DNA from: Escherichia coli
GTDB taxonomy: Bacteria; Pseudomonadota; Gammaproteobacteria; Enterobacterales; Enterobacteriaceae
Assembly (NCBI RefSeq): GCF_016903815.1
Contig: NZ_CP069973.1
Strand: one strand, 5' to 3'
DNA: 64,000 nt
This document shows positions 844-5,177 of this stretch, piece after piece. The notes beneath the pieces are model-generated. The model was not told the DNA's origin, ran no database searches, and was given only the letters and a program-made list of their open reading frames with translations. Position numbers and translations under genes: made by a program. The stretch's first letter is position 1, and each line of letters opens with the position of its first letter.

Positions 844-3734
<2,891 letters not shown>

Positions 3735-3761
3735 GTAACTACCGTCGCACGAACCAGGAAA

Positions 3762-3800
3762 GCCCGATAAGCGTTGCGCATCGGGCAATCTTGGGTTTGG
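3762..3800 (+). terminator. Candidate hairpin downstream of ascB (7-bp stem gcccgat/atcgggc)
   Basis: Inverted repeat 3762..3768 / 3780..3786 between convergent ascB and the antitoxin gene; weak T tract. Confidence 0.3.
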
Positions 3801-3812
3801 CATCAGTCAAAA

Positions 3813-4232
3813 TCAAAGAAACCATTCCGGCTTAACACCAAATCGGGCTGAAAGTGCCTTAATGTGGGATATCGTCAGGGATCGTTGCCCAGACAAAATC
3901 TGACTGACCAGGGATTTAGAGCCGATTTCGTTCTTCAAATCCGCGTAGGTCAGATTATGTTGATCAATCAGCGTACGAAGTAACGCCACGCCAACCGGCA
4001 TTGCTGCAACGGCTTTGTCGAACTCGGCAAACTTTTCGTTGTTGTTTTCATATTCTGCAATGCGGCTCGCCAGAAAGTCGATAAGTGGATTGGTGTCATC
4101 TTCTTCAATCAAATATTCGACCAGTTCCAGTGCTTCACGATAATCATCTTCTGAGTCACTACCTCCCAGAAAGGGGACTGCATTGACCAGTTCTCTTGTT
4201 GCTTTAACAGCGCGTGCAGCATTAGCAGTCAT
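3813..4232 (-). CDS. HigA-like antitoxin, XRE-family HTH
   Basis: 139-aa ORF; C-terminal HTH (EIGSKSLVSQILSGQRSLTISHIKALSARFGV) resembling E. coli HigA; overlaps upstream toxin gene by 4 bp. Confidence 0.75.
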   Translation of the reverse strand: MTANAARAVKATRELVNAVPFLGGSDSEDDYREALELVEYLIEEDDTNPLIDFLASRIAEYENNNEKFAEFDKAVAAMPVGVALLRTLIDQHNLTYADLKNEIGSKSLVSQILSGQRSLTISHIKALSARFGVKPEWFL

Positions 4233-4540
4233 TCTTTGTTCTCTCTGTAGTAACGTGTCAGTTTGTCATACTCTGCGTGATTCGTTATGTGCTTCACAAA
4301 GAACCGCTTATTAACAAAGTTTATGTAGGCAATAACCCTAAGATTGTTCCCGCCGACATCCAGAACGTACCATTTGTTGCGATATCTAAAATTGTCGAGG
4401 TTGGGAAACGCCGTTCGCATTTCTTCTGGTGTAGAAAAATCCGTTTCCTTAATAACCCGATACAATGAGTATAGAGCCAGAGCGTCGTTAGGATATTTGC
4501 GCGCACACTCTTCAAATGGCGCTTTCGAAATGATGTGCAT
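4229..4540 (-). CDS. HigB-like toxin (RelE/ParE superfamily mRNA interferase)
   Basis: 103-aa ORF resembling E. coli HigB (MH.I...A..D...KYP...FP.LDNF.Y....YV..VGGN.LRV.A...F......I....H.EYD); toxin-first order typical of higBA; AAGGAAG RBS. Confidence 0.75.
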   Translation of the reverse strand: MHIISKAPFEECARKYPNDALALYSLYRVIKETDFSTPEEMRTAFPNLDNFRYRNKWYVLDVGGNNLRVIAYINFVNKRFFVKHITNHAEYDKLTRYYRENKE

Positions 4541-4621
4541 TTTAACTTCCTTATTAGCGCCTGAATGACTAAACCTGGACTACCATTCCTTCGGATTTAT
4601 TTTCCTATAGTAGTTGATCAC

Positions 4622-4650
4622 ACGGGTGTTCACAATATGTAAACACCCGT
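4622..4650. promoter_or_regulatory. Perfect 9-bp inverted repeat ACGGGTGTT-N11-AACACCCGT upstream of the TA operon
   Basis: Palindrome seen directly, about 80 bp upstream of the toxin start, between hycI 3' end and toxin 5' end; candidate operator. Confidence 0.35.
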
Positions 4651-4706
4651 CTACACGTCACAATTGCACGTCCAAATTCCAAAACGTGAACATGTTTGTC
4701 TACGAA

Positions 4707-5177
4707 CTACTCTTCTTCCACCGCTAACTGCGCGAATCCGCCATTCCCTTCCCAGCCTTCCAGTCGTTGATAAACGGTTTCTACCGCATCTTTAATCGGC
4801 TGGGTCATCGGGTAGTAAAAGCCGACGATATCCGGCTGGATGCCGAGGAAAATCACTTCGCCAATGTCTTCTTTTAACTGGTCGATAAGGTAGTTCAACG
4901 GCATGTTATGGGTAGTCATCATAAACATCTCGGCGATATCATCCGGATCGATGATGCGGATCTCGCCGGGGTTTAGCCCCATATCCGTGGCGTCGACAAT
5001 CAGCAGTCGTGTCGGGCGCAGTTCGCGAATAGCGACAATGTCGTTTTCCGGTGCGCTACCGCCGTCAATCACCACCCAGTTACCTTTCGGCGCGGCGGCG
5101 CACTTTTCCGCCAGCAGCGGACCTGCGCCATCATCGCCCATCATGCTATTGCCAACACAGAGTAAAACGTCAGTCAC
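4707..5177 (-). CDS. hycI: Hydrogenase 3 maturation endopeptidase
   Basis: 156-aa ORF, last gene of hyc operon; matches recalled HycI. Confidence 0.9.
   Translation of the reverse strand: MTDVLLCVGNSMMGDDGAGPLLAEKCAAAPKGNWVVIDGGSAPENDIVAIRELRPTRLLIVDATDMGLNPGEIRIIDPDDIAEMFMMTTHNMPLNYLIDQLKEDIGEVIFLGIQPDIVGFYYPMTQPIKDAVETVYQRLEGWEGNGGFAQLAVEEE

Follow-up and report, generated by a model that had tools for sequence, protein, structure and literature searches.

Two overlapping minus-strand genes occupy the interval between ascB (plus strand, ending at position 3734) and hycI (minus strand, 4707-5177) in the window, by which the whole 64,000-nucleotide stretch of Escherichia coli DNA analysed here is meant. 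The genes are arranged in the inverted order, with the toxin gene upstream (4229-4540, 103 aa) and the antitoxin gene downstream (3813-4232, 139 aa). Both start with ATG and overlap by four base pairs, ATGA. The features discussed below are as follows, with the basis of each assignment in brackets.

4229-4540, minus strand: toxin gene, SehA-like member of the HigB_toxin family (open reading frame, PF09907, alignment to 5IFG_A, identity to SehA)
3813-4232, minus strand: antitoxin gene, with a predicted N-terminal dimerisation and toxin-binding part and a C-terminal XRE helix-turn-helix (open reading frame, HTH_3, alignment to 5IFG_B, SehB residues)
4541-4706, minus strand: window-type upstream region without geneX, from the hycI stop codon to the toxin start (population and allele comparison)
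4622-4650, either strand: candidate antitoxin operator, a palindrome with 13-nt arms and a conserved 7-N3-7 core, GTTTACATATTGTGAAC, at 4628-4644 (inverted repeat)
4604-4635, minus strand: putative promoter, with -35-like TTGTGA at 4630-4635 (within the operator), -10-like TATAGG at 4604-4609 and a 20-nt spacer (alignment)
4546-4552, minus strand: Shine-Dalgarno-like AAGGAAG upstream of the toxin ATG (sequence; kept in both E. coli promoter types)
3762-3786, either strand: REP-like hairpin, GCCCGATAAGCGTTGCGCATCGGGC, between the convergent ascB and antitoxin genes (sequence and folding)

The 103-aa protein matched Pfam HigB_toxin (PF09907, E = 2.2e-22, model positions 4-73 of 74), and residues 85-138 of the 139-aa protein matched HTH_3 (PF01381, E = 7.9e-9). 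The toxin aligned end to end with 5IFG_A, the solved HigB of E. coli K-12 (E = 9.7e-22, 38% identity), and residues 9-138 of the antitoxin aligned with 5IFG_B, K-12 HigA (E = 2.5e-35, 46% identity). The match in family and architecture is far above chance expectation, and these Pfam and 5IFG alignments bear out the initial annotation of a toxin-first, overlapping HigB/HigA-like type II pair. NCBIfam assigned the toxin to no family and returned a chance match only for the antitoxin, and no Rfam match was obtained for region 3500-4900 at E <= 1. The antitoxin gene (higA) is under purifying selection (dN/dS 0-0.1). Values for the toxin gene (higB) are mostly 0.03-0.3, with a maximum of 0.58 that rests on very few substitutions.

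Strain 7/2 is identical to the window across the 972 bp of the locus and across 24 kb. Its RefSeq annotation names the two products "type II toxin-antitoxin system HigB family toxin" (WP_001521139.1) and "helix-turn-helix domain-containing protein". The exact toxin and antitoxin sequences each occur under such names on at least 1,000 contigs, including Shigella sonnei, and the exact antitoxin sequence is also present in contigs labelled E. albertii. A literature search found no paper linking HigB with hycI or citing the RefSeq accessions of the pair, and no experimental study of it. Surveys of the E. coli pangenome have counted three HigB_toxin clusters and found orphan antitoxins to be abundant (PMC10790755). 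The pair is a real, intact type II toxin-antitoxin pair, ordinary in kind and already present in the annotation of public E. coli genomes. Its toxin-antitoxin identity and the regulatory logic set out below are considered very probable, a judgement that does not extend to the target of the toxin.

Relation to Salmonella SehAB and the toxin target

SehA/SehB (STM4031/STM4030.S) of Salmonella was reached through a paper citing 5IFG. The reference sequence for sehAB was a Salmonella Infantis contig from the phage collection whose own notes name the genes STM4031 and STM4030. Identity between SehA and K-12 HigB was 40.8% in our alignment, and the published value of 40% served as a check on the retrieved sehA sequence. 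Other candidate sources were set aside: Salmonella clusters P0074 and P0065 are prophage-borne copies adjoining cro, and contig L034 carries frameshifts and substitutions. A 44-aa SehB fragment, reconstructed from primers in the literature, retrieved partial proteins only. SehAB was first described in a 2013 paper now marked as retracted, and papers from 2020 and 2026 were used as the basis instead.

The window toxin is 57.3% identical to SehA (STM4031) versus 37.9% to K-12 HigB. Among the antitoxins, identity is 45.3% to SehB and 46.7% to K-12 HigA, with SehB and K-12 HigA sharing 42.8%. The toxicity of SehA, its neutralisation by SehB, autorepression by SehB and the dependence on RNase III are experimental results (PMC12817084, PMC7160566). 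Alanine substitution at any of eight SehA residues abolishes toxicity (PMC12817084), and the window toxin has the same residue at every one of these positions (Y53, D61, H88, Y91, K93, T95, Y97 and Y98). K-12 HigB keeps four of the eight and has N61, F93, V97 and H98 at the others. Eight SehB residues are required for repression or dimerisation (PMC7160566), namely Y32, L42, L52, I60, S107, L121, L129 and F140, and all of them are conserved in the window antitoxin as Y31, L41, L50, I58, S105, L119, L127 and F138. Judged from these alignments, the closest characterised relative of the pair is Salmonella SehA/SehB and not K-12 HigBA. The initial annotation compared the proteins with K-12 HigB/HigA and missed SehAB, whose toxin is closer (57% versus 38%); the mechanism reported for SehA is unlike that of K-12 HigB.

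SehA reportedly lacks endoribonuclease activity and inhibits RNase III through the dsRNA-binding domain, its toxicity being rnc-dependent (PMC12817084). Since SehA is reported to inhibit RNase III and not to cleave mRNA, the window toxin may act by either of two routes. By analogy, action through the SehA route of RNase III inhibition is given slightly less than an even chance. The other route, in which the toxin would be a ribosome-dependent mRNA interferase like K-12 HigB, cleaving translated mRNA at the A site within a module otherwise as proposed, is a serious and only slightly weaker contender. It draws on the membership of the toxin and K-12 HigB in one Pfam family with full-length alignment, on the invariance of Y53, H88, Y91, T95, R68 and N65 in K-12 HigB, SehA and the window toxin, and on the finding that K-12 HigB cleaves translated mRNA only, in vivo (PMC2814082). 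The assay from which SehA was concluded to have no RNase activity used naked RNA. Ribosome-dependent toxins generally leave naked RNA uncut. Against the interferase route, the toxin is only 38% identical to K-12 HigB but 57% to SehA, it has, like SehA and unlike K-12 HigB, K93, Y97 and Y98 in the C-terminal helix, residues needed for SehA toxicity, and this toxicity is reported to depend on RNase III. Residue conservation does not by itself separate the two targets because Y53, H88 and Y91 are also present in K-12 HigB, and the RNase III mechanism is the work of one laboratory on a 57%-identical protein. Transfer of the annotation "mRNA interferase" from K-12 HigB may accordingly mislead for a widespread E. 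coli protein, and the pair would allow the RNase III mechanism to be tested outside Salmonella, in E. coli.

Operator, promoter and upstream region

The core of the candidate operator is invariant in ten aligned promoters from nine genera and has no other match in the 64-kb window, where 0.04 matches would be expected by chance. The palindromes of related systems share the 7-N3-7 design and differ in the inner dinucleotide of the half-site, which reads GTTGCCA in K-12, GTTTTCA in sehAB and GTTTACA in the window. Such differences would fit related antitoxins that do not cross-regulate, as was claimed for sehAB and sehCD in the paper of 2013 that is marked as retracted. In other genera, close relatives have a pair of operators, at -73 and -35. 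Both E. coli alleles retain the first operator only, at -104 to -108 (-104 in the window), and their second site is degenerate.

A sigma-70 consensus scan upstream of the toxin gene found no promoter, and the promoter call rests for that reason on alignment with relatives. The corresponding elements are TTGTAA-17 nt-TATAGT in other genera and TTGTGA-17 nt-TATAGT in the other E. coli allele. In the window, the -10-like hexamer ends in G and follows a 20-nt spacer, which makes expression of this allele uncertain. Both genes would be transcribed together from this promoter upstream of the toxin gene. By analogy with SehB and K-12 HigA, a dimer of the antitoxin would bind and neutralise the toxin through its N-terminal part, and DNA binding by its C-terminal helix-turn-helix would repress the operon at the single palindrome at 4628-4644. 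Depletion of the antitoxin would then release free toxin, whose predicted toxicity would slow growth by lowering translation capacity. For K-12, autorepression of the operon by HigA and a requirement for Lon protease in induction have been described (PMC2814082).

The upstream region is only about 60% alignable to that of the other E. coli allele (L006 3798-3970), versus 97-98% identity in the coding regions. The break in identity is sharp and falls at the toxin start codon, upstream of which only the operator core, the -10 element and the Shine-Dalgarno sequence are conserved. The 60 nt of the window next to hycI have no counterpart in the other allele. The window-type upstream region, 166 bp long, was found in 342 of 5,426 complete E. 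coli genomes, on the chromosome in every case, with conservation of 99% or more in 304 of them. No plasmid origin was found for this region, its only match in the plasmid collection being a 4.9-Mb E. coli record that is apparently a mislabelled chromosome. The same record (NZ_CP134663.1; H150, H165) is the sole "plasmid" source of a 98% toxin match.

Downstream of the pair, the minus-strand RNA of the 3762-3786 hairpin has a folding energy of -26.6 kcal/mol (z = -2.3). The hairpin is kept in all alleles, K-12 included, and is possibly a shared transcript end. Alleles differ in the REPs that separate ascB from the antitoxin gene (3735-3812 in the window, 4416-4520 in the K-12 contig L005), with an extra 34-nt REP, GTGCCGGATGCGGCGTGAACGCCTTATCCGGCCTAC, in K-12 and several other strains that is absent from the window and O157.

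That the window allele is transcriptionally crippled or heading to loss, and effectively inert, is regarded as unlikely. The loss of the second operator, the TATAGG hexamer with its 20-nt spacer and an upstream region that has diverged by about 40% from that of the other E. coli allele would all be in keeping with such a state, as would the frequent decay of the locus (toxin lost in about 1,417 genomes, both genes in about 2,918). Both reading frames are nevertheless intact, higA is under strong purifying selection, and the co-oriented hyc operon could supply transcripts by read-through.

Distribution and history of the locus

Among the 5,426 complete E. coli genomes, the antitoxin gene was found in 2,508, always in a single copy at one chromosomal locus. 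The toxin gene, at 80% coverage or more, was found in 1,091. Subtraction of toxin-bearing from antitoxin-bearing genomes gives about 1,417 with the antitoxin alone, and about 2,918 genomes have neither gene. The pair is absent from O157 and from K-12 MG1655, in which ascB (b2716) and hycI (b2717) are adjacent across a 158-bp gap. Both the K-12 adjacency given in the initial annotation and the proposed strain variability of the pair, present complete in 1,091 of the 5,426 genomes, are thereby confirmed. A scan of species representatives returned no match in any Escherichia species representative, and the E. albertii context described below was taken from an exact-protein look-up.

Most other carriers of the pair have a further gene, here called geneX, between the toxin gene and hycI, which the window lacks. 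Its product, of about 247-257 aa, has a signal peptide and matches no Pfam family, and the gene was found at 80% coverage or more in 1,462 of the 5,426 genomes. The geneX allele of E. coli 03_3469 lies at 3971-4714 of contig L006, and the DNA of this gene differs by up to about 15% among alleles.

In alleles with an orphan antitoxin, 25-29 nt remain from the 3' end of the toxin gene. The deletion breakpoints are of two or more kinds, and the deletions are for that reason taken to be independent. The orphan protein is identical to that of the window or differs by one residue, with dN/dS of 0-0.05 relative to the window allele and no value above 0.09 whichever alleles are compared, and the orphan gene looks maintained. 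In these alleles (L002 3056-3475, L003 3070-3489) the toxin gene, promoter and operator are lost, and transcripts of the antitoxin gene could arise only if transcription of geneX or the hyc operon reads through. Orphan antitoxin copies also occur in Kluyvera and Serratia. It is a doubtful proposal that E. coli carriers have a SehA-type, RNase III-inhibiting toxin in place of an mRNA interferase and that the orphan antitoxin, found in about a quarter of E. coli genomes, owes its retention to neutralising the 68-78%-identical toxins of plasmids and prophages, as anti-addiction or immunity, or to a regulatory role at other genes. With toxin genes deleted first, in independent events, and an orphan antitoxin that is conserved, the locus displays natural stages of toxin-antitoxin decay and would suit tests of anti-addiction.

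The initial annotation described the pair as a second system beside the canonical ygjN-ygjM. This description fails for strain 7/2, in which fadH directly adjoins rlmG with no higBA between them (L011 5384-5500), as it does for 317 of the 342 genomes with the window-type allele. In the window's clone, the family is represented by the hyc-linked pair alone. Matches to canonical higB were counted with a concatenated query, genomes with both being the total of places minus records. Any such match occurs in 25 of the 342 window-type genomes and in about 553 of the 1,091 pair carriers, the latter an upper bound in which 40-nt remnants count. The canonical locus is a presence/absence polymorphism in negative association with the hyc-linked pair, with a match in about 51% of carriers versus about 85% of non-carriers, figures uncorrected for phylogeny. 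Frequent loss of the canonical toxin, for example in B2 strains, has been reported (PMC7232551).

Outside Escherichia, chromosomal relatives are found in Leclercia, Mangrovibacter, Kluyvera, Citrobacter, Phytobacter, Yokenella and Pluralibacter, with toxins at 73-79% and antitoxins at 75-82% identity, and none of them lies near hyc or asc. Two short contigs from metagenome-assembled genomes, labelled "Collinsella sp." (L012; hycI, geneX, higA and ascB) and "Citrobacter sp." (L023; higA and ascB), encode proteins 98-99% identical to those of E. coli and apparently represent contaminating E. coli sequence in the bins. A homologue is encoded by 1,039 records of the plasmid collection, the best genuine plasmid match being 77.7%. 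Copies in Salmonella (L030-L033) and in the 94-kb Cronobacter phage JK004 (H166) have toxins of 68-76% identity, with JK004 at 75.7%, and the copies in Salmonella lambdoid prophages adjoin cro in the repressor region. Such a position is typical of exclusion or defence cargo.

A main role of the pair in anti-phage abortive infection or in the exclusion of plasmids or prophages, as opposed to stress physiology, is also improbable, to about the same degree as an inert allele. It would accord with the PADLOC matches to PD-Lambda-2_A (E = 4.9e-15) and PD-Lambda-2_B (E = 2.4e-14), and with the prophage, phage and plasmid settings of the close relatives just described. PD-lambda-2, however, has three genes and a B protein with a peptidase domain. 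There is no third gene here, the PD-Lambda-2_B match spans only profile positions 9-115 of 402, and the pair sits between housekeeping operons and not within a defence island.

The K-12 gap is collinear with the full arrangement. It contains, in order, the ascB-proximal REP region (reaching to within 6 nt of the antitoxin stop codon), 26 nt that span the geneX 3' end and then the geneX start region, the last two being joined at an ACATCCC microhomology; O157 is likewise. For geneX, K-12 thus represents a deletion state. The remnants, at 4525-4559 of L005 in K-12, measure about 26 nt and about 16 nt, in O157 as in K-12. The 5-nt sequence TCAGT stands at both edges of the higBA segment, which fits a microhomology deletion and is possibly a target duplication. 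No transposase, integrase or other mobility gene flanks the pair, and it is not classed as a mobile islet, which would be marked by mobility genes, a tRNA or att site, or several insertion sites.

Assemblies carrying the NCBI label E. albertii have the order hycI-geneX-higB-higA-(142-aa gene)-hydN. Their hycG is 93-94.5% identical to that of E. coli, versus 96.5-97.8% within E. coli. Between the window and these assemblies, the toxin genes are 94.9% identical and the antitoxin genes 96.4%, compared with 94.4-97.1% for hycF-I. Synonymous divergence is 0.04-0.19 for the pair and 0.09-0.40 for hycG and hycI, on average somewhat lower for the pair. In E. coli SCU-112 and PAR, higA, the 142-aa gene and geneX are near-identical to those of the E. 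albertii-labelled assemblies, and hycG differs. Comparison of L008 and L009 with L028 and L029 gave dS of about 0-0.01 for higA and 0.22-0.28 for the adjacent hycG. A near-identical higA segment beside a dissimilar hycG indicates that homologous recombination shuffles alleles, and the history is therefore not purely vertical. SCU-112, PAR and the E. albertii-labelled assemblies also lack ascGFB and have the 142-aa hypothetical gene between hydN and the antitoxin gene (L008 2529-2957, L009, L028 5512-5940). The asc operon may be a later arrival at the locus.

Long residence at the site with repeated loss is the favoured history and is considered likely on these sequence comparisons. The pair is strain-variable but probably old at the site, and K-12 most probably lost it rather than the window strain gaining it. 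The word "inserted" in the initial annotation is not sustained, given the missing mobility genes, the geneX remnants in K-12, the syntenic E. albertii-labelled assemblies and a divergence comparable to that of the hyc genes; the locus illustrates that adjacency of genes in K-12 is an unreliable guide to the ancestral arrangement. That the pair was recently inserted as an accessory cassette, giving a second higBA on top of the K-12 complement, could be read from the absence in K-12 and O157, from TCAGT at both edges as a target duplication and from the movement of the subfamily among genera, plasmids and phages, but it is very unlikely in view of the single-copy, single-locus chromosomal occurrence in 2,508 genomes with no transposase or integrase, the E. 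albertii-labelled synteny, the comparable and on average somewhat lower synonymous divergence, the geneX remnants in the K-12 gap and the absence of the canonical system from the window's clone.

Comparison with known systems

SehA/SehB and the window pair share a 103-aa toxin that is encoded first by a gene overlapping the antitoxin gene, a 7-N3-7 operator that overlaps the promoter, a toxin identity of 57.3%, and all eight toxicity residues and all eight tested antitoxin residues. They differ in that Salmonella has two palindromes, over the -35 and -10 elements, whereas one intact palindrome is found in the window. The operator half-site, GTTTTCA or GTTTACA, is not identical between Salmonella and the window, and the antitoxins are only 45% identical. 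The sites also differ: sehAB lies at fdhE/yiiD with sehCD nearby (between the STM4032 esterase gene and yiiD), compared with hycI/ascB here. On this comparison the window pair is classed as a member of the SehAB subfamily and not as a positional orthologue of Salmonella sehAB.

K-12 HigB/HigA (YgjN/YgjM; 5IFG) has in common with the window pair the Pfam family, gene order, protein lengths, antitoxin architecture and 7-N3-7 palindromic operator. The proteins are 38% and 46% identical, the toxins are unlike in C-terminal helix residues (N61, F93, V97 and H98 in K-12), the K-12 operator reads GTTGCCA-N3-TGGCAAC, and the K-12 locus is fadH-rlmG.

The HigB_toxin pairs of mobile elements of Enterobacteriaceae (Leclercia, Enterobacter and Klebsiella plasmids, JK004 and Salmonella prophages) have the highest toxin identity outside Escherichia, 68-78%, and the operator core, GTT(T/C)ACATATTGTAAAC, is the same in the relatives on chromosomes of other genera. 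The E. coli copy, by contrast, occupies a single fixed position on the chromosome, has one operator where the chromosomal relatives have two, and has a leader longer by about 35 nt.

PD-lambda-2 (Vassallo et al. 2022) resembles the pair in its HigB-like A component and the HigA-like N-terminus of its B component. It differs in having three genes (HigB-like, HigA-peptidase fusion and P4-antitoxin-like) and a B protein of about 400 aa with a peptidase domain that is itself the toxic component, compared with a window antitoxin of 139 aa. Membership in PD-lambda-2 was rejected, as the window has two genes and the PADLOC A and B matches reflect shared domains only.
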